From a virus (Duplodnaviria > Caudoviricetes): a stretch of 64,000 bases of DNA. Positions 3,007 through 61,897 of the stretch are shown piece by piece; the stretch's first letter is position 1, and each line of letters begins with the position of its first letter. A model generated the notes under the pieces. That model saw only the letters and a list, made by a program, of their open reading frames with translations. It made no database searches and was not told the origin of the DNA. Where the stretch lies: IMG/VR virus record IMGVR_UViG_2565956925_000004, positions 6,955 to 70,954 of that record, one strand, 5' to 3'. A program made the position numbers and the translations under genes.

Positions 3007-3043
3007 GTGTTAAGATCATATATTAATAAAACTGAGCAAATAA

Positions 3044-3259: not shown

Positions 3260-3267
3260 AAAATATA

Positions 3268-31186: not shown

Positions 31187-32965
31187 ATGACTGTGTTATC
31201 AGACGAAATTCGTAAAAAGTATGAGGCTCAACAAACTGCTACAGCTCAGTGCCAAAATTACTATTTCAAAAGTAATGATGAGTTTGAAAATGGATTTGAT
31301 AGTGCCCAAACCGCAGTTGAAGAATACCCAGAAGTATTAAAAGCTATTTTTGATTCTATCGGAACAGAATATGCCCCTGAAATTGATAAAGCGGTAATGT
31401 TTGGTGTTGCACAATATCAAACTCGTCACGGCGGTGATCTACCACATCCATCTGTTATTGCAGCTGCATTAACTGCTGGTTTGAGTGGTGCTAAACAGGC
31501 ATCAGCTTTACCTACAGAAACACTTAGCTACTACGATGGTTTAAATGAGTCAGGTTTTGATGATGTAAATCACCAACACCATGAATCAGTAAGTATCGTA
31601 CCAGCGATAACTGTAGCAACCATTGCAAACGTTATTGCCTATGCAATGCCTATCGTTGCGATGATTCCAAACTCGAATGGTTCTAATGAAGTTCCTCTTG
31701 TATCAATTCGCTTTGTTACCAATCGCGATTTTGGTGCAATGAAAAAATCAGAATATTTAGATGGTGCAAATGCATCAAAACCATATGTAGAAGGGCGCTT
31801 TCGCTTCGCATTGTCAAATGGTGGTGCTGGTACAACGTATTCAGTAACCGCACGCACATCTTATGCTGATTACAAAGCTAAAACCCCTGATGAAAATGCA
31901 AAATTATTACCATTTCTTGCTGGTAATGTTTCAATCAAAATTAATGGTAAAGAAGTTGCACATACCCGTAATCGAACAAAATCTAAATTAACAGGCAAGA
32001 TATCTGCTATTGCAGAAAAAGATGTTGTAGTAAACGGCGTTGAATATCGTGTAATTGGTAGCGAAATTGACATTTCAGCTAGCAAAATTAGCGTGACCTT
32101 AAATGAAGCATTACCAGTTGGTGCGAAAGTTGAAGTTCATCTTGTGGCTGATTTTGATGCGCGAGATGGCAACAGTAATTATTTATTGACGCCAGTAGGT
32201 GTTGATTTTGAACCTGAATATGAAAATTTAGTGTCATCACCAATCATGGCTCAGGTTACTTTATCTACTTTGCTTCAATCCCAAGTTAATAACGAACTTA
32301 AGCTTGGTTTCCTAGGTCAGGCTTTAGCAATTGTTCAAGGAAAAATCTTCTTGGAACAAAATGTCCGTTTATTAGGTGAAGCAAAAGATTTAGCGGAATA
32401 CTCGGGACGTGAAGTTACTTTTGATGCATCTCGTGGTGTCACAGGTAAATTAGCTGCTGCATTTAATACGACAGCTGATTTGTTCGGCGAAGTAATGAAA
32501 TTTATTTCTGCTGCCAAAATGGATATTAATCAACGTACTGGTGGTTCAACAGTTGCTTATGATCTTTATGTAGGTGATAGCGCTGCAGTCTTCTTTAATC
32601 AATTGTCGAGCGATAAAATGCCGACAAAAACTGGTTATACAGCTGGATATGGACAAATTGTTCGTATCGGCACTCTTGCTGATGGGACGAATGTTTATCA
32701 TGCACCTTCTGCACAAGAGCTTGTAGCAGAAGCAGATACTGCTTTTGATATGCTTTTAATGGGTCGTGGAAATGAGCCAATTCGCTCACCGTTCGTAGGC
32801 TTTATTCAAACTCCACTATCAGTAATTGAAACACGCCCAGATGCGCGTGAATCAGTAATGACATTAATTGGCTCTCAAGCTGCAGAAACGAACCCATTCG
32901 AACGTTATGCTGATCAGGGTTATGTCATCCACTGTATCAATATGCCATCTCTTAAAAAATCGTAA
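31187..32965 (+). CDS. Major capsid protein (P1 gp23-like)
   Basis: Large ORF with probable propeptide, followed by a strong terminator; IVRIGTL, LL.GRG.EP.R.PFVGFI pattern. Confidence 0.7.
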   Translation: MTVLSDEIRKKYEAQQTATAQCQNYYFKSNDEFENGFDSAQTAVEEYPEVLKAIFDSIGTEYAPEIDKAVMFGVAQYQTRHGGDLPHPSVIAAALTAGLSGAKQASALPTETLSYYDGLNESGFDDVNHQHHESVSIVPAITVATIANVIAYAMPIVAMIPNSNGSNEVPLVSIRFVTNRDFGAMKKSEYLDGANASKPYVEGRFRFALSNGGAGTTYSVTARTSYADYKAKTPDENAKLLPFLAGNVSIKINGKEVAHTRNRTKSKLTGKISAIAEKDVVVNGVEYRVIGSEIDISASKISVTLNEALPVGAKVEVHLVADFDARDGNSNYLLTPVGVDFEPEYENLVSSPIMAQVTLSTLLQSQVNNELKLGFLGQALAIVQGKIFLEQNVRLLGEAKDLAEYSGREVTFDASRGVTGKLAAAFNTTADLFGEVMKFISAAKMDINQRTGGSTVAYDLYVGDSAAVFFNQLSSDKMPTKTGYTAGYGQIVRIGTLADGTNVYHAPSAQELVAEADTAFDMLLMGRGNEPIRSPFVGFIQTPLSVIETRPDARESVMTLIGSQAAETNPFERYADQGYVIHCINMPSLKKS

Positions 32966-44500: not shown

Positions 44501-47500
44501 CATCGTCGTGATGCTGCAGGTAGTAATAATCAAATTGGAACCTCTTGGAATAATATTTCGACAGATAAAGAAGTTTTATGTACTTATACATTTGATACAA
44601 ATCTTGTTGATTTACAATATATTAATGTAATTTTATATGCTCAAATTGGATTTGCACCTGATTTTTTAATTCGTGAAGTTCAAATTGAAAAAGGTGAGCT
44701 AGCAACGGGCTTTAGAAAAAATCCTCGTGAACTTGAAAAAGGGTTAGAGGCTAATGCGACTGCCATTGAAGGTACCAAGGCAGATGTTAAAAAGAATGGT
44801 GAACAAATTGCATCCATTTCAGAAAATTATGTAACTTTAAAATCTGCGGTCGATAACAATAAATTAGCTGCTGACGGAAAGTTTCAAGAAATTAACTCAA
44901 CAATTAGCGACAACCAGCAAAATACAACACAGTCAATTTCGAACTTAGAGTCAAGTTATAAACAACTTAATCAAGATCTTGGTCAAGTTTTCAATTATCG
45001 TGTCTACTCATGTGGTTGGAATGGCTTTTTCACAGGGATAAAAAACCTTAAAGGTGAAATCAAATCCGTAGCTTCAGCTCGCGGATTCTCAGTTCATGTT
45101 TTAGCTGCTGATGGGTCAATTGCTTCTTCAACTCGATACGATACATATGCTGCTATCGCGAATGCAACGGCGATGAGCAATGCTATCGCCGCGATTCCGA
45201 ATGACACATTTGTTATTGTGACCAACTACGACAGTATCGGAGTAAATATTGCTACTGTTAAAAATGCCTTAATCTCTCTTGGGGCAAATCCATTTACAAT
45301 TGATCAAATTACTGGCCGTGATGCATACATATTAGTAGGTCAAAAAGGAATTGGCTCGGGGAGAGGGATCGAATTACATTCAACACCAGATACGGGCCCA
45401 AATGGAGCCAAACAAATCATGCTTGCCGTTCAGGTCGTAAGTGGTATTCCGATTGGTTTGGCAAATAACAGTGGTAACCTACAAAAGGTGTTAGAAAACC
45501 ACGCTCAAATACTTCAAGAAAAAATTACTCGATCTGATGCTAAAGAAGTCTTTGCTGAAGAAATTAAAGTCTTCAAAGCACAATTAGATACCTTACGTTA
45601 TTCAGAAGAAAACTGGATTTTACTCGGTGATGATACTAAAAATTTAAGTATCACCACTGGCACCAATAGAACAGTTGCTGTTTGGGAACTTCAATACAAA
45701 CATAAAGAAATTCCCATAGATAAAGGTGACCCAGTTGTTGCAAGAATCAAATATACCGCTGCAGCTGGTTTGGTTGGAGCAACTTGTAGCATTCAATTCC
45801 ATGGAGCAACTTATAGCATTGGATTGCCTTCATTTATAGTTGCTGCTAGTGGTGAAATTGAATTGACTGGTATTTTCCCATCTGATGTAAAAGCAACTGC
45901 ATTTGAAGCAATTCCATTAGGGCTGCGCTTTGATAATGCACCGTCAGGTGGAACTTTTACGATAACTAATATGTTTATCAGCCGTGGTAATTCTGCACCG
46001 AATTTTAAAGGCGGTTTTAGATCCTCTCTTAAGCAAAATGCACAGTTTGTAGAAGATACCTTTATCAAAGCAGATGCAAACAAAGGTGTTATTGCCCAGC
46101 AAATTCAACAATATGATGCTGGTGTACCTGGTGGCTTATCTACAGTAGTGAAAACAACAAAAGCTACAGCTGATCAAACCTCACAAGATCTTGCAACTCT
46201 TAAAAATACTGAAATTTCGCAGTTACAAACAAGTACTAACAATCTTGGCTCGGCATTAGAAAACACAACAATGCTGGCGATGATGATTACTAACGGCAAG
46301 TTGGTGCAAGGAGATGTGAACTTTAAGAAGGGTAATAATGCAGTAGGTGTATATAACAATGCTGGCAATGGGAATGTTGCTGTTACACGTGTTGCAAAAA
46401 GTGCGGATAACCCGACTACATCAACACATGAGCTGGAAATCAAAACCATTGGAACTGCCAATCCTACATGGGGTGGTTTTTATCAGGCCGTGAATGGCCG
46501 AGCAAATGCGGTCTTCGTTATTAAATACCTCATTAAATTGCCCATTGGATATAAGCTAGTGAATGCTGGTAACGCTATGGGTACTGGTGCCATTGATAGA
46601 TTTATTGGAAGTACTGAGGGTACAGGAAAATTCGAAACTTATATTCGGATGATTAAATGCGGTGCCACAGGTTCAATTACTTACTCAGGACATGTTTATG
46701 TAGCTGGCGGATCTACACCAACTGCAACTGCACCTTTAGTTTGGTCCTTAGCTCAAATTGAGCAATATGACGTTACTGATTACGCTTCAGCTGACCCGAC
46801 ATTACAAGATTTTGTTTCTACAGCTACAGACTCTATTTCAACATTAACCAATTTCAAAGAAACATGGGCCGCCAAACTTTCGGAGATGTCTTCAAAGTTA
46901 GACAGTAAAAACGGCGCTTATATTTTGAATGCGGATATGACAAATACTAATGTTGAGCGAGCTATTGCTGCATCATCACAGAAAATTACCTCAGAATATA
47001 CTAATGCTATGAGCGTTCAGCCATTGGGTTCAGGTGGAGGCAAAATTTTCGTGAAGCCCTTAACTTGGCGTCAACCAATCACGACCTCGGGTACGCTTGT
47101 AATTAAGACACCAATTACAATTGGTGCCTTCATGACTAAGGTTAAAATCTCAGGTTATAACTACAACAACAAAGAAGACAATATTTTTGATTTGGACTTG
47201 GCGTTCTATGCATATACGTCAACAGTGCCATTTTATCCAAATATGACTTCGCGTTCTTTTGGTATCACCTTAGATGAAAGCAATACTACGACTAAAGGTT
47301 TGGCTTTAGCTTTAGATAGCAATAATAAGGTGTGCATTTTAATTACCAAAAAAGATGCTTGGTCTTACCCAGCTATTACGGTTGAGTCAGCAACAATTAC
47401 TCATACAAACCCGCCTGATAACTTTAAAGAAGGTTGGTCAGCGGCTATTGAAACGGATTTATCGGTTTATAAATCAGTAACGCCGTTTACTGTCACTTCA

Positions 47501-49099
47501 ATGATGGAAACGACTGCAGGTTCTCAAGCCAAAGTTGATATTCCAATGGCTCAGTTAAGTGATATTGCAGCTGATAATAAACTTACACCCGTTGAGAAAA
47601 AACAGGCGAAGTTGGTGTGGGATACTCTTTATCAAACTGATACTAGCTTACGAGCTGAGGCTGTCACTTATGGTATATCTTCAGCTGCTTATGCAACGGC
47701 TTTTAGTACTTTAAATACATATTTGGCTTCTTTGTTTGCCAATATGAATACAACTAGCACGATTGATCGAAATCAGTTTATTACTAACTTTGCGAATGTT
47801 CACAATGCACGTCAAGCATTGGTAAGAGCAATATCTGAAAAGGCAAAAGAGATAGCCGATTCTGCAAAAGACTTAGCATCAACTACAAAAGCAACATTAG
47901 AGCGTGATTACATGACGTCTACCAAGACGAATGAAGCAATTGCATCTTCAACTGAAAGAATGTCTGCACTGTATTCTGCTAATGGTCAAAAGATTATGGC
48001 TTCAGTACTAGATACCTGGCAAAAAGATTGGTTAGTAAAAACTCCAAGTGGAAATAAACCTGAGCTTAATTTAGTGGCCGATGCAACTTGCCGTGGGGGA
48101 TATGCACTAAGAATAGGTAATAACGTTGGAAATGATGAAGCTTGGTTAAATTGGTTTGCTTCTTTGCCAATCGATGACAACAAATACTACCGAGTGAAGT
48201 ATCGATTCCGCCGTGTTAGTGGTACGGGTGTTGTATACCTAGGTGCAACTTGTCAGAACGCCACTAAAACTAAGTATGTGGCCCAAGATAACACCGAAAT
48301 CAATGATATTGGAGCTAGTCATTATCTTGTTGCTGGTACCGCACCAGCGCTGGGAACTTGGATAACTGGAACTGCATATTTCAAGGGTAGATCTGCTGGT
48401 GCAAGTGCAGGTGCCGGCACTCTACTAAGTCCAAAAACATTTGCGAATAAAGCTGCTTTCTTTACTCCAATGATCATCGGTAACTATTCAGGAAAAGCTG
48501 GTGAGGTGGATCTAGACTTTATTGATATTGAAGATGCAGACAATATTGCAGATTTTGAAAACTTCAAAACTACCTACACAACTGATGTTGGTGCATATGC
48601 TGGTGCATTACAAACCTTAGTTTCTGTATACGGCCAAAACGCTATCAAACTTAAATCTCAAGCTGACTTGATTGATGGTGTGAAGGGTAAATACGTAATG
48701 GGTATGGATAATAACGGTGTGTTTTCTGGCATGTCTATGGTCAGTGAGCAAACGAATGGAACCGTTATCAGTTCAATAGGTTTTCAAGCGGATAAAATTT
48801 TCTTCACAACTGGTACATCTTCTACTAAGTACATGCCGTTCATAATCCAAGACAATCAAGTCATTATGAATAGTGATGTATTTATTAAGAATTTGACTGC
48901 TTCTAACTTCAAAGTGAAATCTTTAACAGCCGATCTGTTTAACGTTGACAAATTAAGCGCGATTGCTGGTGAGTTGGGAACTTTAACTACCTATAAGGAT
49001 CCTACTAAGCCTAATGGCGCGAGAATGGTCTTGAGCGGAAGTTTAATTACGGTTTACGATGATAATAATGTTGTCAGGGTTAAATTAGGGCTGTGGTAG
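38594..49099 (+). CDS. Giant 3501-aa baseplate spike (gpV/gp5-like) fused to a multi-module fibre with gpJ-like C-terminus
   Basis: OB-fold VHIHGLTDG...V.VFFENGNEERPVI and beta-helix repeats at N-terminus; coiled coils alternating with CBM-like modules; C-terminal GKY...D.NG..SG....FQADKI..PF.I...V...I..L.A..LSAI...LG..G.R......VYD.NNV.RVKLG. Confidence 0.8.
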   Translation: MNGYKRAKILSYNAKGRTAQVHIHGLTDGASEGITATFAYPVGDSDLDTEIQIVDGEDVYVFFENGNEERPVIHSYVSHGDGAIVGVRRIRQDNIEFISKENLKVDSGTTVSIKTPLMNVQANTQQTGNSTLTGNSTVVGNTSVAGNSSVAGSMAVGTTLTVAGVPIDPKAIEGAFKDALDKLESLKEDLKEQGEIIDENKDQISQEIDEKIKEVEELIDNIKDSDAYKLLEEGINHIDEEVQKIHDQVKEVGQIAQNKVDEIRAYIDQEIVDTKLIVEQHANDANIRLDEANQRIDQSIQANEALVADAQQRAIRAEKELDDKIGFIKRETDSIIADVRSDSDEIRLVAENAKKIADQEVLDRKKQAADTLIVIDQTKAALKQDIDQNLVKAGQMIDDAKLALGEETNTLINQKIEPIVSQTEAAVKKVDQVAAQYVELDKKVDSGFLAEAEARANDKEALTQSFELKFAEMQNELGKSNALISEESKTRAAQDKAITEQISIAQSQIGDNKAAINSVERTVVDLTKSVAEKTDQIQASLDTTNASLLSANELARMQSLGKPLRDDPTFLSGNGGLSAYAVPAGSTLTRQAKSTDNPVNSTHEMLLRSTASLGGGWYPTVPTLVAAPNKTFLIKQIIKMPKGTYLLPVGNATGTGGYLRVLGNKEGTGKFEVYYSVVQCGYDAPAAIHGHFRVIAGTNPPLPSTTSPVDVILADYEVWDITALNDTIPKTWRDQITGNASYIEKVESSVKLVDEKLVSEAKKLEELKTDYNSNKTKTTSDLATITQSVSDGDKALSLRIDQTKAALEEADRQSNSNILEVTESLAEFEQSTTTKFTKLDTSISKENLKVQGQIVDVQKSVSTLESNTNTKISGLSSSLKTTDDIAKLAFDNAAEAQQTGTTAVKATEALSQNLLSLKSQTQVTTGVRAVVTAKGIDDWSTWRTTGEAKVLQDSDAFGGYILELGNNAGNDEAWVHWKELVKINPDTLYRVRARFRRVAGENGSIYLGVACKTADQTKYVTTTNNLAADMGSSNYLLSAIKPNLGEWQEVVLYLKGKSTGAATGLGTIDNPRTFPAQAEFYAPMFIGNYAAQSGISQLNYIIVEDNNSLASANDATATANDLFKTATNRTEAEAERTSKLESRMQNAETGIQSNAQALLKTATKSDLESAMGRVATDITAAVDNIKIGGVNAVANSEAPRSSTASTSREYLMYERSKELKAFYDENLDKPVTISFDVSVPVAGTVQVYSSNGSAHYFTTSVTVTKANEFQRFAVTVSPKVHTGSTTESTIEFYGTYGSGRIPTIQKLQIEAGNKATAWSPSPRDTQSSLNANAEAIKVTQAEVKKNGDTLSSQSIDISKLRNDLTLTNTEVGKKASSEALETTNSKVTEQAGQIQAVTEQANTLSANLSKSAPAGTNLLINSNVNGTYDGVSYPHVLYKMGEDWEVGAKYTLLWCAEHKRNNADTNSTLGAYVGGGQQVVQSLTNSNGKVVSKITFTKNSSGLGKYVNFYMLNRPNAAQGSIGTVYWAVLVKGELITTESWIASPYDFNAAFDQVSANLNEFKQIYVTESGALAQRTSKLEAGMSDVEKNIYNTTQALNNYATNAKLDEVTASQTKAFNTSLTKLDESIKAENDSDSLIPDYNLANPDKWISHYGYDMKQYFKTTTTGKVTNTVFRKDTTVPVNCFNYSLSAVPNDRTYRISFWVRCSSDSNGSLSVPVMFGYADGLWTTARYTTLSVPAAMVPAKDGNWYFVSVICNLTSNTTIQQMRFGIALGHTGSAGWWEVQGFKVSPVLNESDVDSTIVKSSILIDYSSKSDTTKAISAATESLEAKFRHKFGDLWTNSSATLDSTRYTKTETNQAIAEESKIIKAAISTSGGDNIIKNGDFSKPLEISNWRQNAAVAGSLLEVYKDSNGITWGHFKSTNTATYFKGFIETITLAEGLEGNQKYTLSFKAKSLTAAQSQILLIIHRRDAAGSNNQIGTSWNNISTDKEVLCTYTFDTNLVDLQYINVILYAQIGFAPDFLIREVQIEKGELATGFRKNPRELEKGLEANATAIEGTKADVKKNGEQIASISENYVTLKSAVDNNKLAADGKFQEINSTISDNQQNTTQSISNLESSYKQLNQDLGQVFNYRVYSCGWNGFFTGIKNLKGEIKSVASARGFSVHVLAADGSIASSTRYDTYAAIANATAMSNAIAAIPNDTFVIVTNYDSIGVNIATVKNALISLGANPFTIDQITGRDAYILVGQKGIGSGRGIELHSTPDTGPNGAKQIMLAVQVVSGIPIGLANNSGNLQKVLENHAQILQEKITRSDAKEVFAEEIKVFKAQLDTLRYSEENWILLGDDTKNLSITTGTNRTVAVWELQYKHKEIPIDKGDPVVARIKYTAAAGLVGATCSIQFHGATYSIGLPSFIVAASGEIELTGIFPSDVKATAFEAIPLGLRFDNAPSGGTFTITNMFISRGNSAPNFKGGFRSSLKQNAQFVEDTFIKADANKGVIAQQIQQYDAGVPGGLSTVVKTTKATADQTSQDLATLKNTEISQLQTSTNNLGSALENTTMLAMMITNGKLVQGDVNFKKGNNAVGVYNNAGNGNVAVTRVAKSADNPTTSTHELEIKTIGTANPTWGGFYQAVNGRANAVFVIKYLIKLPIGYKLVNAGNAMGTGAIDRFIGSTEGTGKFETYIRMIKCGATGSITYSGHVYVAGGSTPTATAPLVWSLAQIEQYDVTDYASADPTLQDFVSTATDSISTLTNFKETWAAKLSEMSSKLDSKNGAYILNADMTNTNVERAIAASSQKITSEYTNAMSVQPLGSGGGKIFVKPLTWRQPITTSGTLVIKTPITIGAFMTKVKISGYNYNNKEDNIFDLDLAFYAYTSTVPFYPNMTSRSFGITLDESNTTTKGLALALDSNNKVCILITKKDAWSYPAITVESATITHTNPPDNFKEGWSAAIETDLSVYKSVTPFTVTSMMETTAGSQAKVDIPMAQLSDIAADNKLTPVEKKQAKLVWDTLYQTDTSLRAEAVTYGISSAAYATAFSTLNTYLASLFANMNTTSTIDRNQFITNFANVHNARQALVRAISEKAKEIADSAKDLASTTKATLERDYMTSTKTNEAIASSTERMSALYSANGQKIMASVLDTWQKDWLVKTPSGNKPELNLVADATCRGGYALRIGNNVGNDEAWLNWFASLPIDDNKYYRVKYRFRRVSGTGVVYLGATCQNATKTKYVAQDNTEINDIGASHYLVAGTAPALGTWITGTAYFKGRSAGASAGAGTLLSPKTFANKAAFFTPMIIGNYSGKAGEVDLDFIDIEDADNIADFENFKTTYTTDVGAYAGALQTLVSVYGQNAIKLKSQADLIDGVKGKYVMGMDNNGVFSGMSMVSEQTNGTVISSIGFQADKIFFTTGTSSTKYMPFIIQDNQVIMNSDVFIKNLTASNFKVKSLTADLFNVDKLSAIAGELGTLTTYKDPTKPNGARMVLSGSLITVYDDNNVVRVKLGLW

Positions 49100-50537: not shown

Positions 50538-52073
50538 ATGTCTTCTCGGTTCTTATCGTTGTTACTCGGTGAAAATGTTAATTCATATGATCAGCAATTT
50601 GATACCTCTAATCAGGATGCTACGGCGCAGCTTTATGAATCCATGGCACCGTTTTCACTTGGGACCAATCAAACTAAAGCCAATAAGAAGCGTACTCGAA
50701 AGGAAATTTTCACCAAATGGGAGAGAATGTTACGCTTTGCCCCAATCGCTGAGGGTATGGGGATTCATGTTTCTGCAGCTTTAGGCGGAGATTCTTATAG
50801 CGGCCAACAAGTGTTTATTACACCAGCACAACGTTTGAAAAAGGCAAATGGCCCAGCAGCTGAAAAAATAAAAAAACAGCTAGATGAACGCCGTGATGTC
50901 ATGGAAAAGCTGATCAATAAGTATTTAAGTAAGCTTGCCCGAGATGCGATTTCATTTGGCGATTCTTATGCCCGAATTTATGGGAAAAAAGAGAGTGGAG
51001 TAATTGACCTCCTTTGTAATGAGTATACTTATCCGCCATTAATACAGCCATTCGAACAGGGCAGTAAAACTGTCGCATTTTTTTGCTTAGATCCCCGAAA
51101 TTGGCAGAAAACTATTACCAAACTAAATACTATTCAAATGGTACGTTTCAAAATGCCCCGTATGAGCAATATTGCTCAATATGAACTTGTTGAAACTGGC
51201 CTTGTAACTAAAATGTTAGAAGGAGATGACCCAGATGAATTACCGATTTTACCAGCGCATTTAGGTGGTTCATTTCTATACGAAATTGAAGAAGTTTATG
51301 ATGATGTGATTCTTGCATTGGCATCTATGAACAGCCAGCAGATTGCAGATACAGTAAATCAGATGTTCTTGACGGTAAATATGTCTGGAATGCCGCCAGC
51401 ACAACGCCAAGCCTATGTTCGGGGTTTAGAAGGTTTACTTAAAAATCATGAGACATATGTTCGTGATGCTTTATCAGATGGCGAAGCCGTTTGGAATACT
51501 GCTTTTCACATGCTGCCAGTATTTGATGAGAAGCAAGTTCTAAATCCTGTTGGTGATATCAAACTTCAAAGAAGCTCACCTATTAATATTGAACAATTCA
51601 TGATTAATGTCCGTTTGTTAATGGGCGGGATAGGTCTAGACCCAAGTATGGTAGGGTGGGCTGACATGTTAACTGGTGGTATTGGTGAAGGCGGAGCGTT
51701 CCATACTTCAGCGCAAATAATGCGTAGGTCACAAGACATTCGTACAGCAGTAACTGAAGGGATTAATCAGATTCTTCATTTGGATTGGGGATTTGCATTT
51801 AATGAACAATTTGAGCCTAAAGATTATCCTTGGCAAGTTGAATATTATACAAACCAAACTGCAGCAGCTACTGAAGAAATCAGTAATGCCCAATCTAGAA
51901 TGAATACAACACTACTTAAAACCCAAGTGATTGCCGCTTTAAAGGAGACAAACTTAGATGTAGAAACTATGGCCTATATTCTAGAGCGCGATGCAGGTAT
52001 GAAATATGATGAAGCTCAATTATTAGCTGAAAGTATTTTTAAGAGCCGTAAATTTTCTGAGGATGAAGAATAA
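50538..52073 (+). CDS. Portal protein (P1 Prt-like)
   Basis: 511 aa; LARDAISFGDSYARIYG..GV, GGSFL..IE, GIGLDPSMVGWADML.GG.GEGG.F.TS. Confidence 0.7.
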   Translation: MSSRFLSLLLGENVNSYDQQFDTSNQDATAQLYESMAPFSLGTNQTKANKKRTRKEIFTKWERMLRFAPIAEGMGIHVSAALGGDSYSGQQVFITPAQRLKKANGPAAEKIKKQLDERRDVMEKLINKYLSKLARDAISFGDSYARIYGKKESGVIDLLCNEYTYPPLIQPFEQGSKTVAFFCLDPRNWQKTITKLNTIQMVRFKMPRMSNIAQYELVETGLVTKMLEGDDPDELPILPAHLGGSFLYEIEEVYDDVILALASMNSQQIADTVNQMFLTVNMSGMPPAQRQAYVRGLEGLLKNHETYVRDALSDGEAVWNTAFHMLPVFDEKQVLNPVGDIKLQRSSPINIEQFMINVRLLMGGIGLDPSMVGWADMLTGGIGEGGAFHTSAQIMRRSQDIRTAVTEGINQILHLDWGFAFNEQFEPKDYPWQVEYYTNQTAAATEEISNAQSRMNTTLLKTQVIAALKETNLDVETMAYILERDAGMKYDEAQLLAESIFKSRKFSEDEE

Positions 52074-52726
52074 TGGCTTTTTTTGAATATGAAACACAGA
52101 ATAAAACGTCTAATAACAGTTTTGGTAATGTTATAAGTCCATTCAAGGAACGTTTCGCAAGAAATCCTGTCTTATGGTCTGGATTGACAGTTGATAAAGC
52201 TGTTTCTCATTATCAAGAGCTCTATGCATTAGGAACTCTCTCGGCCGCCCATTTTGGAATAGAAATTAGACCTTATCGGGCAAATAGTAAGATTGCCCAA
52301 GCGAATATTCCAATTTTTGATCCTTCCAATAAAATCGCATGGTTAGCCAATAATGTTGATGTATCTCTTCTGGATGCACAAACAGATTCAGTACATGTTG
52401 GACACCATCAACTCAACTATATAACCGGTAATGCCTCGAATGAATTAAGTATCTCATTTATTGAGACTAAAGCTGCAGCTATTGCAAATAGTGCAATAGC
52501 CATAAAGCAGATAATGTTTAATAAAGATGGTACACAACCGCCACCTATAGAATATTTAATGCGTTTGAAAATATATGCTTTTGATAAAGCTGTAAGATCT
52601 CAACATCATTTTGAAATTGAGCATTTAGTATCTCTACAAGCTGGTAATTTGCCTCTAGATGCCGCAAATAAAGCCCATTCAATAGTCACTTTAAATTTCA
52701 CTAAAATGTTCCCGAACTTAAAATAA
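52073..52726 (+). CDS. Tail tube-like/baseplate protein
   Basis: ELSISFIET..DGT..PP.EY...VTLNFTK pattern. Confidence 0.5.
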   Translation: MAFFEYETQNKTSNNSFGNVISPFKERFARNPVLWSGLTVDKAVSHYQELYALGTLSAAHFGIEIRPYRANSKIAQANIPIFDPSNKIAWLANNVDVSLLDAQTDSVHVGHHQLNYITGNASNELSISFIETKAAAIANSAIAIKQIMFNKDGTQPPPIEYLMRLKIYAFDKAVRSQHHFEIEHLVSLQAGNLPLDAANKAHSIVTLNFTKMFPNLK

Positions 52727-52731
52727 GCTAT

Positions 52732-52794
52732 GGAACTCATTGGCTTTTTACATTCAATAGATTGAGAAAATATCCTCAAATTAAAATGAGGATA
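52732..52794 (+). promoter_or_regulatory. GGAAC-N30 element, copy 13
   Basis: GGAAC 52732-52736, AAAAT 52767-52771, hairpin TATCCTCA/TGAGGATA holding the SD, GTG 52800. Confidence 0.8.
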
Positions 52795-52799
52795 ACTCC

Positions 52800-54314
52800 G
52801 TGAGTGTTAAATCAATTTTTACTCAAACACATGCACCACATCAAAGCCGATTAGTACCTGGTTTTGATTCAATGGTGAATAGTGGCGCTTGTTCAATTGG
52901 ATTTATTAAAGGTGATTACCGTCAAATTAATGCCTTAGTCACTGAAGACTACACGGAAAATGACCTCTGGCGAGTGATTAACTTAAAAGGGCAGAAGAGC
53001 GGAATCGAAGCTTATGATTCAGTTGCCATACTTGGTGCAATTGATGATCAGCATGCTGGTGAACTAGCAATCTTACAGTTTGGACGCATGTTTGACGCTT
53101 GTGTTACAGATGTAATTGAAACAAATCAATTTGGTCTTAAACGCCACCTATCTTCCAAACAATTTAATTTGTCTGGGTCTAAACCAATTCAAAGATGGCA
53201 ATTAGAGAAATTACAGAACGTGATTGCTGCAGAAACACCTCAATGGGATGGTATCAGTTTAGTTTCTCATGATGGTGATACAGCAAAACTTCTTTTAGAT
53301 ATGCAGCGAAATGATGACCATAGTCAGCTGCTAAGTAAATTTGATGGGTTGCCTACGCTATTATCTAGTCTGGAAGTAGAAGAAGCTCATTATGATTCTA
53401 TTATTGTCGATTACCAGCATTTAGAGCAGCTGTCTGCTATTTTGCATCACGCTATGGATCAGTTTTCTAAAACTGGTGTTAAAGTCATTAACGTTACTGA
53501 AAGTAAGCCCTTCAAGCATAAAAAAGTACTTCAAATTGCGCTTACTTATGATTTTGATGACGGTCAAAACTTCACAATCCTTTTTCATAAGCCAGATCGA
53601 TTTTCAAAGAAAATTAGTTCTGCAGATTCATTAATTTCATGGAAGATCTTAATGAACAATCGCGATATTACAGCTGCAATTCAGCCTAATCAGGGAGAAG
53701 GAATTTCAATTCCTGTTCTCGCTGGTCGAATCATGAAGTTAATTAACCAAAATAGTAATCGTTTTAAACGCTTACAAGCTAAAAAAGCCGAAAAAGCTAA
53801 AGCTTTGGCTGAAGCGGAAAATCGGGTTTTGGAAAAGCAGAGTTTATTGGCATCTTTAAAGCAAGAAATAGAAAGTTTGCAATCTGAATTAGATAATTTA
53901 GCTATTTCCAAAAGTAAACCGACACCAGAAGTGACACCTGAACCGGCACCGGAGGTGACACCTGAACCAGCACCAGAGGTGACGCCTGAACCGGCACCAG
54001 AGCCGACACCAGAAGTGACACCTGAGCCAACACCAGAAGTGACACCTGAACCGGCACCAGAGGTGACACCTGAACCAGCACCAGAGGTGACGCCTGAACC
54101 AGCACCAGAGGTGACACCTGAAGAACTACAAAATCTATCAGCTTCGGATACTTCAAATCCTTTGTATAAGTCAATCATTGAAGGACAAGTAGGCGTAAGT
54201 TTGGAAGTACTAGAACAAGTTCGAGATGAGGCTGAGAAGAATTTAGAAGACCCTTTATTAATTCCAGCTGTAACTGAGTTGCTTAACCAAATTAAAGTTA
54301 AGGAGAGCGTTTAA
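52800..54314 (+). CDS. darA: DarA-like defence-against-restriction virion protein
   Basis: F.DGQ..TI.FH.P....KI...D.L..W..L.N.RDIT..I.P..G..I....LA.RI.KL...NS..F DarA-N pattern; coiled coil; Pro-rich linker. Confidence 0.7.
   Translation: MSVKSIFTQTHAPHQSRLVPGFDSMVNSGACSIGFIKGDYRQINALVTEDYTENDLWRVINLKGQKSGIEAYDSVAILGAIDDQHAGELAILQFGRMFDACVTDVIETNQFGLKRHLSSKQFNLSGSKPIQRWQLEKLQNVIAAETPQWDGISLVSHDGDTAKLLLDMQRNDDHSQLLSKFDGLPTLLSSLEVEEAHYDSIIVDYQHLEQLSAILHHAMDQFSKTGVKVINVTESKPFKHKKVLQIALTYDFDDGQNFTILFHKPDRFSKKISSADSLISWKILMNNRDITAAIQPNQGEGISIPVLAGRIMKLINQNSNRFKRLQAKKAEKAKALAEAENRVLEKQSLLASLKQEIESLQSELDNLAISKSKPTPEVTPEPAPEVTPEPAPEVTPEPAPEPTPEVTPEPTPEVTPEPAPEVTPEPAPEVTPEPAPEVTPEELQNLSASDTSNPLYKSIIEGQVGVSLEVLEQVRDEAEKNLEDPLLIPAVTELLNQIKVKESV
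53919..54122 (+). repeat. 17 x 12-bp tandem repeat encoding (P/V)(T/A)PE
   Basis: PTPE/VTPE/PAPE units read directly. Confidence 0.95.
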
Positions 54315-55822
54315 TGTTACTTAAATTTATTACGCCTTCTGTAATAGCTACGGACCCTTTGATTGTAATTGATCAAATGATTAGTTTCTTTAAACCAACG
54401 AAGTCCTTAACAGGGCTTTTACGGGGCAGAACTAATAATGTTAAGACAGCCAAAGGGGAAAAGATTTCTACTGTCTTCGCCTTAGTCGATATTGATCAAG
54501 TCATTGCGTCTCATACGGCGACAGGTGCAGAAAACCCAAACTATCCTCAAGAATTACAACCGCGAGATCGTAGCCGTGAATCATCACAAGCATGGGTACA
54601 TAAAACCGCTAATGATTTAGATCCCGAAAGCCTTGGCCGCTCAGGGCGGGCAGATACAGGAGCACCGATAACTGGAGACGATTTAGTTGTGGAGTCAGGA
54701 AACGGTCGAACCATGGCAATCAAGCTTGCATATGAGCAGGGCACCGCAGATGAGTATAAACAATGGTTAATTGATGAAGCCGATTACTTTGGTTTTAGTT
54801 CTGAGCAAGTACAGGCCATTTCTAAACCAATATTGATACGTATTCGTACCACTGAGATTGATAGAGCACAATTTGCTATTGATGCAAACCAAGATGATAA
54901 GTTGTCATTTACAGCTACAGAACGAGCTAAAGCTGATGCTAAACGATTAGATGATAATTTACTGGCTCTTTTTAACCCGAGTGAAGACGGTGATTTATTA
55001 GCAGTAAGTAATCAAAAGTTTATTCAAGGTTTTTTGACTAAATTAGGTGATACGGAAGCAGCCCAGTACACCACGAAAGATAAAAAACCAACACAAGCAC
55101 TGATAAACAGAATCAAGGCCGCAATTTTTAGTAAAGCGTACAATGATGATCGTTTGCTAGAAATGATGGCTGATCATACAAAACCAGATCTTCAAAACAT
55201 GCTTAATGCGTTGGGTGTTGCTGCGCCTAAATTTATTGAAGCACAAGCTATAAGTCGTGGAAATGTTCAAGATATATCGGATCAAATCGTTGAAGGTATG
55301 GAGCAAGCCATTGATCAACGTGTTGCTAATGCAATTATTGATGCAGCAAATACCATTTTATCTGCAAAGCAAAATGATCAAGATATTGTTGAGTTTGTAA
55401 AGCAGCAAGGGCTTTTTGAGGATCTAGGGGAAGGTGTTGCTGAGCTCGCCGTGTTTCTCGCCAAGAATAGCCGCAGTTCAAAAAAAATGAGTATGTTATT
55501 TAAAGCTTTAGCTGAATTTGCAGAGAAACAGGCTATAGTTAGCAGTAATGTAGGTTTGTTTGGTGAGCCTGAACCAGTAAGTGTCAAAGATGCTATCCAA
55601 TATGCACAACAAGTGCTTGGTGATGATTTCATTAGTGTGCAAATGTACGATTCTTTGATTGAGTCTAGTAGCTCATGTAGATCTAAAATAATTCGATTAA
55701 CCAGAGAAGGGGCCGAACGTTTCCACAATGCTTTGAAAATTAAAATTACTCAAGTTGATGACATTGAAAAAACAGAAGTGAACAAAATTAATGACATTCT
55801 TTTCGAAGGGTTAGATATTTAG
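54314..55822 (+). CDS. ddrB: DdrB-like ParB-superfamily protein
   Basis: NP.YPQELQPRDRSR...L.SGRAD.GAPI..D.VVESGNGRTMA; downstream of darA as in P1. Confidence 0.75.
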   Translation: MLLKFITPSVIATDPLIVIDQMISFFKPTKSLTGLLRGRTNNVKTAKGEKISTVFALVDIDQVIASHTATGAENPNYPQELQPRDRSRESSQAWVHKTANDLDPESLGRSGRADTGAPITGDDLVVESGNGRTMAIKLAYEQGTADEYKQWLIDEADYFGFSSEQVQAISKPILIRIRTTEIDRAQFAIDANQDDKLSFTATERAKADAKRLDDNLLALFNPSEDGDLLAVSNQKFIQGFLTKLGDTEAAQYTTKDKKPTQALINRIKAAIFSKAYNDDRLLEMMADHTKPDLQNMLNALGVAAPKFIEAQAISRGNVQDISDQIVEGMEQAIDQRVANAIIDAANTILSAKQNDQDIVEFVKQQGLFEDLGEGVAELAVFLAKNSRSSKKMSMLFKALAEFAEKQAIVSSNVGLFGEPEPVSVKDAIQYAQQVLGDDFISVQMYDSLIESSSSCRSKIIRLTREGAERFHNALKIKITQVDDIEKTEVNKINDILFEGLDI

Positions 55823-55897: not shown

Positions 55898-58800
55898 ATG
55901 TCCATCTTAAAGCTCAAACCAATCACTAAAGACACTGTATTGGTTGCGATTTATTACATGATTGATTTCATGCATTTTCAGAGCAATATTGCTCGGTTTT
56001 TCCTTCTTATCATCCATAAGCAAATAGAACTTAACTTGTCTGTAGCGAAGCAAGCATTATCCTTTGCACGTCAAGAAAGTGACTTTCCAAAATTGGATGA
56101 AGTAGTTGAAGTCTTATATGCGGAAGCTATCAAAAACATTGATGAATCAGTTATTGAACACCTAAATAACGGTTCGAGAAATGTTATTGAGCAGTTGGAG
56201 ATTATTGTCTCCCTTTTTGCATGTGAAAAAGAGCTGAAGCCATACACAACTAAAAAGAATAAAACGCTACAGGTTATTGGTCTAAAAGGCATCAAATTAA
56301 CAAAAGCTAAAGAATATGACCCTTATGCCTTTTATTCTCAGGGTGAAATTTTAGTACGTTCAAAACATCTTAAAGCCATTCCAGACTCACTTCTTTCCGA
56401 AGATCAGCAACTAGTAAAAGGGTTATTCTCCTATGTATCAAATACCAATTCAGATGTGGAATCAGTTGGCGAATTTCGTTTCAGATCCAGAGGACCAATT
56501 GTTTCTGCAAATGGATCAGGAAAAAATGAACTCGAGACTGCAGAAGCAATCAGAAATGATGGAGAAACTGGGGATCTCAGAAACAGTAGTACTGGCTTAT
56601 CAAAAAGTGATGATGCAAGTTTACTTGGCGGCCGAAATCCAAGAAATGAATCTTCAGATGGAGATAGTAGAACCAGTACTAACCGGATTAACAGCAGCGG
56701 AAGCGGTGAACTATCTGGTAAGAGATCATCTCTTAAACGAGCAAGAGATCGATCAATTGTACAAACTGCTAAATCAGTTAGAGCTGCCATAGATGAAAAG
56801 CTGGAAGCTCAATTAAAAGCAGATAATGTTGAAACTGTTTGGAGTGATGCTTCAAATATTGATGAAGCTTTGCCATATCTACAACCTGCACAGCGTGGGG
56901 ATGTTTTTAAAACGGAAAAGCACTTAATCGAGGAAAATAAGAAGGGTATTCTTTTTACAAATGGCACAGGTACAGGCAAAACCTTTACTGGGCTGGGTGT
57001 TGCAAAGCGTTTTATTAATGCTGGTCTTAAGAATATTTTGATTGTTACCCTAAACGATAAAATCGCTAATGACTTTGTAAAAAGTTCAAGTCCTTTGCAT
57101 ATAAAGGCTTATAAATTAAAAAGCATTAAAGATAACGGCGGTGATGAGCACTCAGTAGTGGTCACAACATTTGCTAATTTTGGTCAAAACACAAGTTTGG
57201 TTCATAAACATTGGGATCTTATTTTAATTGATGAAGCCCATACTCTTTCACAATCATCTGATGGTAAATCAACTGCAGCCTTAAACAAGCTACGAGCATT
57301 AACAGGTCATTTGCGAGGTTTTAATGAATGGTTTGATAATAAATTTGAAGATCAGATGCCTACTGAAGAACTCGATGAAAATGGCAAAGAAACTGAACAA
57401 TACCTAACTGCTTATAACAAAATGCAGGTCCTTAGAAATGAACAAAGAAAAATCTGGAATCTGAACTGGAAACACCAGAAAAGTAAGTGCAAAGTTGTTT
57501 TCTTATCTGCTACGCCATTTAGTTATCACTTTTCACTTGATTGGGCGGAGGGCTATTTATTTGATTATATGTCACCTTCTGTATCTATTGATGACCAAGG
57601 TAATTTAGCAGAAGGTTTTGGTAAGGCTCGAGAGCACTTTTATATGGGAAATCTTGGATATCGAAAACGATATGGAAAGTTGACCCGTCCAGAGGCCAAG
57701 GTGGATACGGGTGTACTTGAAAGACAGTTTGCCGAAAATCTTAAAAACACTGGTGCCATGTCTGGACGCGATTTAGAAGTTAATTTTGACTATGATCGTA
57801 AATTTATTCTAATAGGCTCTCGTGTTGGTGAACTTATTGATGAAGGTTTAACTTATCTTCGCAATGGTTATAAAGAAATCGAAGGACATAAAACACGAAC
57901 TTTTGAAGAATGGGCTGCTCAGACCGGAAAACCAACAACAGGCTGGGGACGTCATGCATCGATGCAAGAATATGATCGTTTATTCACTGGAAATCGTTTT
58001 AAAAACATATACGAAATTATTGCAAAGCGATTTGATTATTTAGCAAGACGCCGTTTGTTAGAAGCTATTAAAGCTGAAGCTTGTGTTGATATGGTGAAAA
58101 AGCACTTAGCATTAGGCCGTAAAGTAGTTATTTTCCATGATTATAATGAAGGTGGTGGTTTTGCACCTTTCTTAATTAGTCAGTTTGATATCGAAAAATA
58201 TGAGAGCCATTTAAGAGATGATATTGAGCTTGAATATAATTCATTCAAGGAAAATCGCCCAGATCTAGTGAATCTCAATCTTGACTACGATTCACCAGTT
58301 GAGACTTTAAAGAAAGCATTTCCAAATGCTCTATTATTTAATGGCCGCATTTCAAAGCAACAACGTGAATCTAATGTAGGGTTATTTAATACAGATGGTA
58401 GCGGGCACGATATTCTTATTCTGCAGTCAGATGCTGGTTCAACTGGAATTAGCTTGCATGATACGACTGGTAAACATCAGCGAGTTCTAATTAATATTGG
58501 GCAGCCAACAAAGCCTGCCAAGTTAAGACAGACAGAAGGGCGTATCTATCGAACAGGACAGGAATCGAATGCTATTCAGAGATACTTAACCACTGGTACT
58601 GCATGGGAACGTGCAGCATTTGCAGACACGATTGCTGGACGTGCAGAAACGGTAGATAACTTTGCAAAAGGTGCTGACGCTGTAGTAAGTATCAAAGAAG
58701 CGCTAATTCAGGCTTATGAAGATGCAAAATATGAAGAGCCTAGTCATAATGATGGTATTGGTGGTAAAGCATATGATGAAGAAAATGCCCGTATTGCTAA

Positions 58801-59728
58801 GCTAACGCCATTTGATCAAGCACTAACGTTCTACTATGCAAAAGGCAAACGTTCTGAAAGTCGTGATAACCGTGAAGGTAAGGAATGGTATGCAACGCCT
58901 GAACCACTTGGATTCAAAATGATTGAATGGGCAGGGGTGCACACAGGTGATTCCGTGCTTGAGCCAAGCGCTGGTGATGGCGCTATTGGTCGATTTGTTC
59001 CGCAGGATGTAGAACTGACAATGATTGAACCGACTGAATCTTTAGCTAGTCGTGCTCAAATGGCTAACACTGGTGCAAAAGTAATTGTTGATACATTCGA
59101 GTCTTTAGAAACTTTAAATAAGTACCATGCGATTGTGATGAATCCGCCATTTGGTCATGCTGGTTCCTTGGCAATTCAACATATCAAGAAAGCTTTTGGT
59201 CATCTTTATGATGGTGGGCGTATTGTTGCATTGGTACCACGTGGTTCGATGGATTCAAAAGTTGACGAATTTATTGAAAGCACACCTGGTGCAATTATGA
59301 CAGCTGAAATTTGGTTGCCTCAATCAACCTTTAAAAATGCTGGTACCGCCGTTTCAACTCGCATCATCATTATTGAAAAACATGCAGGCGCTAATGATGT
59401 TCCAATAACACGAGAATTAGACTTTACGCACCTTACAAGTGTTGAAGACCTCTTTTCAGAAATCCGTGACATCGCAATGCCTCCTAGAAAACTACGCATT
59501 GATGAGCAGCTTGCTAAGTATGAACTTTATGTCAGAACTGAACGTAGTAAGTATGTTTTCAATGGTGACGGCGTTGATAAACCTCAGATTAAGAATATCA
59601 TGTTGAAATTCTGGGGCTCAGAAGTTAATGAGTTTGATGAAATTGTTATGCCATATAACAAGTCTGCTGAAATCATTAAGAAGATTGATGAATTTGAGCA
59701 AGAAAACAATATTAAGCTAGCTGCATAA
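55898..59728 (+). CDS. DarB-like SF2 (strawberry-notch type) helicase plus adenine methyltransferase fusion
   Basis: GTGTGKT, DEAH, SAT, GSTGISLHD, QTEGRIYR; MTase motif I LEPSAGDG and motif IV NPPF. Confidence 0.85.
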   Translation: MSILKLKPITKDTVLVAIYYMIDFMHFQSNIARFFLLIIHKQIELNLSVAKQALSFARQESDFPKLDEVVEVLYAEAIKNIDESVIEHLNNGSRNVIEQLEIIVSLFACEKELKPYTTKKNKTLQVIGLKGIKLTKAKEYDPYAFYSQGEILVRSKHLKAIPDSLLSEDQQLVKGLFSYVSNTNSDVESVGEFRFRSRGPIVSANGSGKNELETAEAIRNDGETGDLRNSSTGLSKSDDASLLGGRNPRNESSDGDSRTSTNRINSSGSGELSGKRSSLKRARDRSIVQTAKSVRAAIDEKLEAQLKADNVETVWSDASNIDEALPYLQPAQRGDVFKTEKHLIEENKKGILFTNGTGTGKTFTGLGVAKRFINAGLKNILIVTLNDKIANDFVKSSSPLHIKAYKLKSIKDNGGDEHSVVVTTFANFGQNTSLVHKHWDLILIDEAHTLSQSSDGKSTAALNKLRALTGHLRGFNEWFDNKFEDQMPTEELDENGKETEQYLTAYNKMQVLRNEQRKIWNLNWKHQKSKCKVVFLSATPFSYHFSLDWAEGYLFDYMSPSVSIDDQGNLAEGFGKAREHFYMGNLGYRKRYGKLTRPEAKVDTGVLERQFAENLKNTGAMSGRDLEVNFDYDRKFILIGSRVGELIDEGLTYLRNGYKEIEGHKTRTFEEWAAQTGKPTTGWGRHASMQEYDRLFTGNRFKNIYEIIAKRFDYLARRRLLEAIKAEACVDMVKKHLALGRKVVIFHDYNEGGGFAPFLISQFDIEKYESHLRDDIELEYNSFKENRPDLVNLNLDYDSPVETLKKAFPNALLFNGRISKQQRESNVGLFNTDGSGHDILILQSDAGSTGISLHDTTGKHQRVLINIGQPTKPAKLRQTEGRIYRTGQESNAIQRYLTTGTAWERAAFADTIAGRAETVDNFAKGADAVVSIKEALIQAYEDAKYEEPSHNDGIGGKAYDEENARIAKLTPFDQALTFYYAKGKRSESRDNREGKEWYATPEPLGFKMIEWAGVHTGDSVLEPSAGDGAIGRFVPQDVELTMIEPTESLASRAQMANTGAKVIVDTFESLETLNKYHAIVMNPPFGHAGSLAIQHIKKAFGHLYDGGRIVALVPRGSMDSKVDEFIESTPGAIMTAEIWLPQSTFKNAGTAVSTRIIIIEKHAGANDVPITRELDFTHLTSVEDLFSEIRDIAMPPRKLRIDEQLAKYELYVRTERSKYVFNGDGVDKPQIKNIMLKFWGSEVNEFDEIVMPYNKSAEIIKKIDEFEQENNIKLAA
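56433..56792 (+). CDS. Candidate overprinted 119-aa helical protein (+1 frame inside the DarB-like linker)
   Basis: ATG start with AAAGGG upstream; amphipathic-helical composition; exactly spans the disordered S/G/R-rich linker of the main frame. Confidence 0.5.
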   Translation: MYQIPIQMWNQLANFVSDPEDQLFLQMDQEKMNSRLQKQSEMMEKLGISETVVLAYQKVMMQVYLAAEIQEMNLQMEIVEPVLTGLTAAEAVNYLVRDHLLNEQEIDQLYKLLNQLELP

Positions 59729-61084: not shown

Positions 61085-61897
61085 ATGTCCAAAGCTTTAG
61101 CTTATGCACCAGCTGTGAATACAGCAAAAACTAAGTTGCCAAGTACTGAGTCAGATCCTTTCTACGGTTCTATTTCAAAGCACAAATACGCTGAGTTTTC
61201 TCTATGTGATAAAGATGGAAACGCAATTGCATCACCAGTAATTAGAGCATTGCTTACTGAAGGCGACAAAAGTATTGAGAGCCAATGGCAAACACCTTTT
61301 GAAAACAGTAATCCAGAATTAAAAATGCCTATGCTCATGGCTAATCTTCAAACTGGACAAATGCTACAAGCTGCTGCAACGCTAGGAGAGAACTCACCAT
61401 TCATTTCAGCATTAAGTGATATGGCTTCTGGTCCTTTAGCAACTGCTGAAAGCGCACTTAAAAGCGTTGAGGGACGCACAAATTTAACCAAAGTGAATAC
61501 AACTCAAGTATTCCTATCTACCTCTTCAGTACGTCTCAATTTATCAATCTTTTTCTTGGCTTTTAGTGATGCGAAATCAGAAGTTGAAGACAGAATTATG
61601 CAATTGGAGGCATGGAGCCTGCCAGTATCATTATCCTCTGATTCTACGCTGCAAAATGTCGTTAATGATTCAAATACAACCTTAGAAGGTTTGTTTTCAG
61701 GGGTTATCCCACCTTTTGTATCTCTTACTACACATGGCAAAACTTATAAACCTTTTATTATTGAAAGTGTTTCAGCACCAATAGTTGCACCAATTGATGA
61801 AAAAGGTAACCGGTTAAGTTTAGCCGTCAATATTAGTTTAATGAGTCGAACTGCATGGGACTCAAAAGACATTTACTCATTATATGGAGGCAACTAA
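61085..61897 (+). CDS. Putative baseplate/tail-tube initiator protein
   Basis: W.TPFE, F.A..DA..EVE.....L..W..P, IESVS.P..AP.D..G pattern. Confidence 0.5.
   Translation: MSKALAYAPAVNTAKTKLPSTESDPFYGSISKHKYAEFSLCDKDGNAIASPVIRALLTEGDKSIESQWQTPFENSNPELKMPMLMANLQTGQMLQAAATLGENSPFISALSDMASGPLATAESALKSVEGRTNLTKVNTTQVFLSTSSVRLNLSIFFLAFSDAKSEVEDRIMQLEAWSLPVSLSSDSTLQNVVNDSNTTLEGLFSGVIPPFVSLTTHGKTYKPFIIESVSAPIVAPIDEKGNRLSLAVNISLMSRTAWDSKDIYSLYGGN

Follow-up and report, generated by a model that had tools for sequence, protein, structure and literature searches.

A close described counterpart of the arrangement reported here is the Dar system of phage P1, in which, according to one study (PMC12810830), the small protein Ulx is among the internal, ejected Dar proteins and is grouped with DarB. 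We analysed a 64,000-nucleotide (nt) stretch, hereafter the window, of a 70,954-bp virus record (Duplodnaviria, Caudoviricetes; IMG/VR record IMGVR_UViG_2565956925_000004, positions 6,955 to 70,954), whose relatives come from Acinetobacter. As in P1, a small protein is genetically tied in the window to a large protein that combines a helicase with an N6-methylase, and DarA_N and ddrB-ParB domains are encoded beside it. Ulx, however, is the product of a separate gene of 146 amino acids (aa) downstream of darB, whereas the small gene of the window, which we call the nested gene, lies inside the gene for the large protein, which we call the host gene.

Many phages carry giant polyvalent DarB-like proteins, which are regarded as injected counter-defence weapons and whose accessory factors are hardly known. 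The host protein is a DarB-like polyvalent protein, DarB-like only in the broad sense. It belongs with its giant relatives of ~3160–3910 aa to the class that Iyer et al. (2017, PMC5512222) describe as carrying many conflict-related domains per chain, of which DarA_N, ddrB-ParB, helicase and methylase are common to that class and to the host protein's kin. The text of that paper contains neither 'overlapping' nor 'frameshift', uses 'reading frame' once and 'nested' twice in unrelated passages, and mentions no gene in the spacer that precedes the helicase. A search of the full-text literature, with most subscription journals and supplements outside its reach, returned no account of a gene nested in these helicase proteins.

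The spanin genes Rz and Rz1 of phage lambda are an example of a small gene embedded in a larger one on the same strand, in the +1 frame and with its own start; their products are lysis proteins that act together, and both frames encode functional sequence. The nested gene shares with this pair complete embedding without a change of strand, the +1 offset and a start of its own. It is unlike the pair in that its proteins and process have no relation to those of lysis, the host frame is an unconstrained, disordered spacer, the constraint lies on the embedded gene, and the partnership of the products is one that we infer. Two reviews (PMC8227390; bioRxiv 10.1101/229690) describe overlapping viral regions in which both frames are coding and one partner is highly disordered. 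In the usual case of overprinting, the added gene is young, disordered and taxon-restricted and the underlying one is old and ordered; in the present case, in contrast, the embedded gene is ordered, conserved and widespread, and the long host frame is the disordered, unconstrained member.

Selection acts on the +1 frame of a predicted nested gene

A preliminary description of the window, made from the sequence alone, had pointed to a 119-codon ATG-started open reading frame (ORF) in the +1 frame of the host gene, and this ORF is present at 56433..56792 with the translation quoted there (Table 1). Its offset is 1 relative to the 1276-aa ORF of the host gene, and it occupies a stop-free run of 124 codons (56418..56790), the runner-up +1 run in the same gene being 63 codons long. 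From the pattern of substitutions, start signals and homologues set out below, we predict with near certainty that the nested gene is real and conserved far beyond the window.

Scanning viral contigs with the large protein gave 41 loci at 92–97% identity, and the region is present in 39 of them. The +1 ORF has an identical start and stop in 38 of these 39 close relatives, and its frame is uninterrupted in the same 38 and in all divergent relatives, so that the check for stops in homologues that the preliminary description had proposed does not refute the gene. In one close relative (L037), the main frame is broken near codon 433.

The distribution of variable sites shows which frame is under selection. 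Counted over 40 sequences (22 haplotypes) by main-frame codon position 1/2/3, these sites number 31/13/5 inside 56433..56789 and 32/22/130 outside (chi2 60, P 9e-14), and in 60-nt bins the phase switches exactly at gene nucleotides 540 and 900, which are the borders of the ORF. The ratio of nonsynonymous to synonymous substitution rates (dN/dS, Nei-Gojobori), which had also been suggested as a check, is 0.070 for the +1 frame inside the nested ORF, the mark of purifying selection, as against 3.38 for the main frame. The main-frame ratio in the flanks is 0.12 (N-terminal side) and 0.07, the variation of the N-terminal flank falling mostly on third positions of the main frame, and the out-of-phase frames give 1.2–3.4, which is the look of a frame that is not selected. 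The dN/dS values by frame and the phase switch therefore place selection within 56433..56792 on the +1 protein, and not on the amino acids of the main frame; purifying selection in the alternative frame, as expected of a same-strand nested gene, is thus found here.

The nested gene also has translation start signals of its own. A Shine-Dalgarno (SD)-like match of at least 4 nt, lying 4–20 nt 5' of the ATG, occurs in 51 of 53 distinct upstream sequences, compared with 24.6% of control positions taken at random in these loci; when at least 5 nt must match, 35 of 53 upstream sequences and 5.1% of control positions qualify. The ATG is present in all 53 upstream sequences, and across 80 loci it always lies at family position 1 or at most two codons from it (60 exactly, 18 within two codons, 2 judged by eye). 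In several loci a nested-frame stop abuts the ATG, which together with the conserved SD-like site points to independent initiation over frameshifting from the host frame.

Both overlapping frames stay open

We assessed the openness of the +1 frame with the main-frame codons taken as given, using 50,000 replicates per scheme. The probability of finding no +1 stop is 2e-5 when codons are shuffled, 4e-4 when synonymous codons are permuted within the region and 0.0096 when synonymous codons are resampled with the codon usage of the gene; all six xTA codons of the main frame precede a codon starting with C or T. The preliminary description had called the stop-free stretch improbable, and these values agree with it, but for an ORF picked after the fact from 64 kb the run alone is suggestive and not decisive.

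The reverse calculation is more telling about the main frame. With the nested protein fixed and codons used at their ordinary frequencies, 6.2–8.5 main-frame stops are expected and none is seen; for six of seven lineages no stop-free main frame arose in 4000 replicates, and for the remaining lineage one did. Neither the nested nor the main frame contains a stop in any of the diverse loci compared (27 of 27), and the third forward frame contains 1–22. Because both frames are stop-free in every one of these loci where stops would be expected by chance, we conclude that the main frame is read through.

A set of 13 divergent Acinetobacter loci, drawn from A. modestus, A. venetianus, metagenome-assembled genomes and viral contigs (12 at 57–63% nested identity and one at 94%), keeps the 119-codon ATG ORF throughout. 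It lies within a frame of 1245–1283 codons in 12 of them; the exception (L047) has a large frame of only 425 codons, which breaks ~110 codons 3' of the nested stop. Across these loci the spacer, the part of the host protein encoded over the nested gene, aligns gap-free at 35–40% identity, and the 400 host residues that follow it contain 41 gaps; the nested protein is 57–63% identical across lineages whose spacers share only 35–40%. Judged from these alignments and from the stop counts, the region is dual-coding, and the only constraints visible on the main frame of the spacer are that it stays open and keeps its length.

An antisense ORF of the same length overlaps the nested gene almost exactly (Table 1). 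Its openness is expected by chance (P 0.30–0.49), and in 26 other loci its frame carries at least one stop in 21 (2–5 stops in 19) and none in 5. We rejected it as a third gene because it is chance-expected and interrupted in most divergent relatives.

Predicted fold of the nested protein and of the spacer

AlphaFold2, run with a 20-sequence alignment, predicts the nested protein as a confident fold of seven helices, with a mean predicted local distance difference test (pLDDT) score of 90.1 and a predicted template modelling (pTM) score of 0.82. The main-frame peptide of the same DNA, modelled as a control with an equally deep 20-locus alignment, reaches a pLDDT of 52.2 and a pTM of 0.20, with 76 of 121 residues below 50, and its sole helix is formed by the last 20 residues, which lead into the helicase. 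The contrast drawn in the preliminary description, between an ordered-looking helical product and a hydrophilic main frame over the same interval, is thus reproduced by structure prediction: the main frame is rich in S, G, R, N and D and is mostly disordered in the model. The helical look of the nested product, rich in Q, E, L and M, is partly forced by the A/T-rich third positions of the main frame. Across the same 20 loci, six columns are invariant in the nested frame and none is in the main frame. Hydrophobic residues make up 33.5% of the nested protein and 11% of the main-frame sequence. Foldseek searches of the PDB and BFVD with the nested fold gave no match at E<=0.001, and searches of PDB sequences and the ESM Atlas gave nothing usable.

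The nested family keeps its place before the helicase

An exhaustive HMMER search with the 119-aa product retrieved 21 proteins at E<=1e-3, most of them full-length (119–139 aa, 29–61% identity) and with a common motif pattern; over all searches, homologues range from 29 to 94% identity. The family gave no match in Pfam, PHROG, NCBIfam or PADLOC at the curated cut-off or at E<=0.001 covering the domain.

Among 50,697 phage records, a tblastn search with a distant family member matched 7 records from five phages: Pseudomonas phage Skulduggery, Klebsiella phage vB_KpnP_ZX1, Serratia phage Parlo and the Vibrio phages D274 and 1.232.O. Each match is covered by a giant coding sequence (CDS) named 'DarB-like antirestriction', 'PLxRFG protein', 'N-6 adenine-specific DNA methylase' or 'hypothetical'. 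In all five phages the match is offset from the CDS start by 1 modulo 3, and the nested ORF begins with ATG and has 126–131 codons under an open main frame rich in G, R, S, D, E and A. Searching the same records with the helicase part alone returned 8 records from six phages, namely these five and Ruegeria phage 45A6, in which an ORF nested in the +1 frame matches the family with an hhalign probability of 99.4% (E 1e-21); the nested ORF is therefore carried by 6/6 cultured phages with this helicase. The expectation that annotation would miss the gene holds for these six cultured-phage records, which list only the giant CDS, but not for one Acinetobacter baumannii NCBI record, which contains it as a 'hypothetical protein'.

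The same nesting recurs in uncultivated viruses. Viral contigs found through the nested family have it in the +1 frame of a giant ORF in 26 of 26 cases, over a G+C content (GC) of 0.41–0.69, and metagenome loci found in the same way have it in 30 of 33 (of the apparent exceptions, L161 and L163 are cut by contig ends, L159 was dropped as a partial match, and L151–L153 are described below). When loci are instead found through the helicase alone, the family hit lies upstream, in the +1 frame and no other, in 74 of 74 testable loci; 75 had been taken, one of which (L196) starts inside the helicase. A second helicase set, re-ranked to a divergent member, shows the family hit at +1 and in no other frame, and an open main frame, in 80 of 80 loci, with 73 distinct nested proteins. 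Combined, 154 of 154 testable helicase-found viral loci have the ORF nested at +1 immediately before the helicase domain. The two samples overlap and consist of the 80 top scorers among 414 relatives and the 80 top scorers among 360.

The distance to the helicase is kept while the upstream context changes. In all six giant relatives that we scanned with Pfam, the ResIII domain begins ~30–45 residues past the nested ORF, and the domains upstream of the spacer differ, with InPase in three, ddrB-ParB in one and none in two. A main-frame motif, N-I-x-x-x-L-P-x-L-x-P-x-Q, at ~56850..56890 is kept just past the nested stop in nearly all lineages and marks the true start of the helicase module.

Three related metagenome contigs (L151, L152 and L153; e.g. 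L152 2554..4308) keep the nested ORF and the spacer, and their helicase stops right after the Walker A motif and is followed by unrelated sequence; they are probably decayed or rearranged copies. In one close relative (L040/L086), the family match spans residues 1–108 only. A megablast search of the phage records with the host gene gave no match, and a class-wide genome search with the family profile matched 1 of 401 genomes, the centre genome itself, which is uninformative.

Among plasmid records there are three weak matches to the family domain, two of them in Acinetobacter records. In one plasmid match (H47), on Comamonas thiooxydans plasmid NZ_CP083940.1 (57.7 kb), the family domain at 31729..32103 lies under a giant 'LPD38 domain-containing protein', so that the nested arrangement may extend to plasmid-like elements.

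The domain also occurs outside the nested setting

Two proteins carry the family domain un-nested, at their N-terminus, and in both it begins at the same Met as in the nested family. The first, of 533 aa, is encoded at 1749..3350 of locus L143; the domain is followed by a coiled coil and by a C-terminal domain that matches the candidate defence family PDC-S68 (E 5.6e-40), and a DnaJ match stays sub-threshold (23.1 bits against a cut-off of 27.8). This gene adjoins a 202-aa ORF (4010..4618) that looks recombinase-like by eye. The second, P0025, has 362 aa, of which the remaining 240 C-terminal residues are unmatched; it is found on 4 contigs, the longest of 47 kb, under the cluster label 'hypothetical protein'. 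Searches for genomic loci of P0025 and of another family protein, P0013, found none. In-frame fused forms were absent from searches over 245–2000 aa and 293–933 aa, which is weak evidence.

The un-nested proteins indicate that the domain is an independent module, which favours the spacer as the younger of the two readings. Synonymous codons likewise fit the nested frame better in 18 of 25 lineages.

How the nested protein may act

On the sequence evidence, ribosomes in frame 0 would cross host residues 179–299 and make a disordered spacer of ~120 residues, free to vary as long as no stop arises and the length is kept. From the +1 frame a second gene, which starts at the ATG at 56433 behind an SD-like site, would make a 119-aa globular protein of seven helices that is under strong purifying selection. 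In the explanation that we propose, this small protein would act with the helicase-methylase module, which starts ~40 codons past the nested stop, as a bound accessory subunit, be it a cofactor, an assembly or packaging helper, or a regulator. The preliminary description had proposed an inhibitor or chaperone of the helicase/methylase; the invariable linkage makes some partnership plausible, and its kind may be any of these. By analogy with the Dar proteins of P1, the module itself is probably a capsid-packaged, injected counter-defence enzyme. Embedding the gene in the coding sequence of the module would keep the pair together when polyvalent domains shuffle by recombination, and would let a single mRNA give both products. 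Of the two frames, the spacer is probably the more recent, having arisen when flanking genes fused across a small gene that was already there; this is the weakest step of the scheme.

These data are best explained by a partnership of the nested protein with the helicase-methylase module, and we hold this view with moderate confidence, because the upstream domains shuffle while the nested gene and the helicase start never part in the loci examined. Several points weigh against it, or against the predicted gene on which it depends. The partnership is deduced from linkage, and linkage could reflect history instead of joint function; the loci are moreover phylogenetically related, so that the counts are not independent events, and more distant helicases fall outside the linkage sample because only the best-scoring relatives were taken. 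Neither the fold nor the sequence of the nested protein matches anything of known function in the libraries searched. The analogy with P1 Ulx rests on gene neighbourhood, because the family is not homologous to it: when Ulx was considered as a homologue, hhalign of the family profile against it gave a probability of 0.14% (E 0.4), and we rejected the relationship. In the AT-rich Acinetobacter lineages, the window included, codon fit favours the main frame, and one close relative (L040) has no nested stop at the usual codon. Translation of the nested ORF is itself a prediction: RNA-library contigs from two transcriptomic runs of one study hold relatives of the region and show neither transcription nor frame, and two raw-read runs yielded 0 reads and are no test of expression.

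A rival account, to which we give appreciably less weight although it deserves to be taken seriously, is that the nested gene is real and its product acts alone, in a counter-defence, regulatory or host-directed role, its position being a frozen accident of fusion. That the partnership is an inference leaves room for this account, as does the presence of the domain away from the helicase, in the 533-aa and 362-aa proteins described above; nor do the invariant columns (M, G, V, Y and L) include residues of a catalytic type. Against it stand the completeness of the linkage to the helicase start (74/74, 80/80 and 6/6) and the fixed distance to the helicase under freely varying upstream domains; an unrelated gene would be expected to have been lost or moved somewhere across a GC range of 0.41–0.69 and across the hosts concerned.

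More speculatively, and in our judgement improbable though worth stating, the spacer may be a fusion scar in which two flanking genes were joined across an older gene, the survivor encoding an obligatory partner of the module, and the family domain of the L143 protein may be a captured bait. If this were true, host defences of the L143 type would use the bait domain, joined in bacteria to a nuclease domain from a candidate defence system, to recognise the phage helicase module.

Returning to the proposed accessory subunit, a second rival would have the helical domain made within a larger chain by programmed frameshifting, either by a +1 shift in and a -1 shift out that replace the spacer or by a single +1 shift that truncates the protein; we consider this very unlikely. 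The nested frame does lie on the same strand in the +1 frame, and four database proteins (P0006, P0009, P0010 and P0011) pass from the main to the +1 frame at the A5 run 56602..56606. All four switch at the same spot, as if one A had been lost, and they are most simply explained as assembly errors, because loss of one base from the homopolymer accounts for the switch; each of these chimeric proteins comes from a single contig or from two, and for three of them the contigs measure 0.2–2.9 Mb. The ATG at family position 1 and the SD-like site are conserved, however, the nested-frame stop right before the ATG in several loci leaves an upstream shift no room, the domain of the un-nested proteins begins at the same Met, and the main frame is kept open over the whole overlap, which would be needless with two shifts. 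That there is no second gene at all, the openness and conservation of the +1 frame coming from composition, an RNA or DNA element or chance, is hardly credible. A hydrophilic spacer does have few codons with T at position 2 and hence few sites where a +1 stop could arise, P is ~0.01 under the most lenient null, and chance keeps an equally long antisense ORF open. But periodicity by codon phase and a dN/dS of 0.07 mark a protein-coding sequence and not an RNA structure, protein homology extends down to 29% identity across GC 0.41–0.69, the predicted fold is confident and the antisense frame is not conserved.

The finding bears on a widespread class of proteins, since it adds a conserved, unannotated gene to every examined member of one large clade, in 73 distinct versions in the 80-locus sample, with hosts that include Acinetobacter, Serratia, Klebsiella, Pseudomonas, Vibrio and Ruegeria. 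Because gene callers and proteomics databases omit the nested ORF, the gene could not have shown up in the virion mass-spectrometry data that exist. The dual coding is inverted and unusually clean, with the constraint carried by the embedded gene and a host frame that only stays open and keeps its length, which makes it a useful case for studying the origin of overlapping genes and the ways in which disordered linkers can come about.

Host gene and neighbourhood

Table 1 Features of the host gene, the nested gene and the upstream neighbours (window positions).
Feature	Position	Strand	Remarks
DarA_N-domain gene	52800..54314	+	Upstream neighbour; Pfam PF18788, E 1.1e-21
ddrB-like ParB-domain gene	54314..55822	+	Upstream neighbour; Pfam PF18763, E 4.6e-36; phrog_5143
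Host (main-frame) gene	55898..59728	+	1276 aa: N-terminal region, spacer, helicase, N6-methylase-like domain
Host N-terminal region	55898..56431	+	Residues 1–178; main-frame coding; no Pfam match
Nested-frame TAA stop	56415..56417	+	Upstream of nested ATG
SD-like AAGGG	56418..56422	+	10 nt 5' of nested ATG
Antisense 119-codon ATG ORF (P0003)	56431..56790	-	Chance by-product; no Pfam match
Main-frame spacer	56432..56794	+	Residues 179–299; overlaps nested gene; predicted disordered; stays open
Nested gene (predicted)	56433..56792	+	+1 frame, ATG; 119-aa protein P0002, predicted all-helical; family without a name
First helicase lobe	56921..57259	+	Pfam ResIII, residues 342–454, above cut-off; Walker A TNGTGTGK; begins 43 codons past nested stop
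Helicase C-terminal lobe	58322..58558	+	Pfam Helicase_C, residues 809–887, above cut-off
Methyltransferase-like core	58970..59233	+	Pfam MTS, residues 1025–1112; weak, under curated cut-off

The host protein combines a superfamily 2 (SF2) helicase with a domain of the N6-adenine methylase type in one chain (Table 1). PHROG methyltransferase families match it at E down to 3.8e-24, and it matches DNA methyltransferase and helicase PHROGs as well as positions 1351–2630 of the 3925-position phrog_10691. As this last match falls in the middle of a giant-protein family, the module sits in a single polyvalent protein in other phages. The N-terminal region of the host protein is 32–40% identical to that of the divergent Acinetobacter relatives.

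Comparison with P1 DarB shows likeness in parts and a different architecture. In P1 DarB the methylase (145–290) comes before the helicase (833–1517), whereas the order is reversed in the window protein, with the helicase at 342–887 and the methylase at 1025–1112. By BLASTP the methylase cores share 24% identity (E 6e-7), and the match of P1 DarB to the C-terminal helicase lobe of the window protein is weak (27% over 92 residues, E 0.006). Given the reversed domain order and the absence of full-length similarity, the host gene is not a P1 DarB orthologue. The phage records matched by the nested family do not include P1.

The neighbourhood is of the Dar type, with DarA_N, ddrB-ParB and head genes around the host gene: a portal gene lies upstream and a PmgG-like head gene downstream. 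The P1-like set as a whole (portal, DarA_N, ddrB-ParB and PmgG-like head morphogenesis) spans 50538..55822 and 61085..61897 of the window. Dar-type domains are thus encoded by separate genes in the window, whereas other phages have them joined in a single giant protein. Farther upstream, after the tail sheath and tail genes, a plus-strand ORF of 3501 aa (38594..49099) contains ILEI, CBM_4_9 and Phage_Tail_Tip domains and is probably a giant tail fibre or tip protein.

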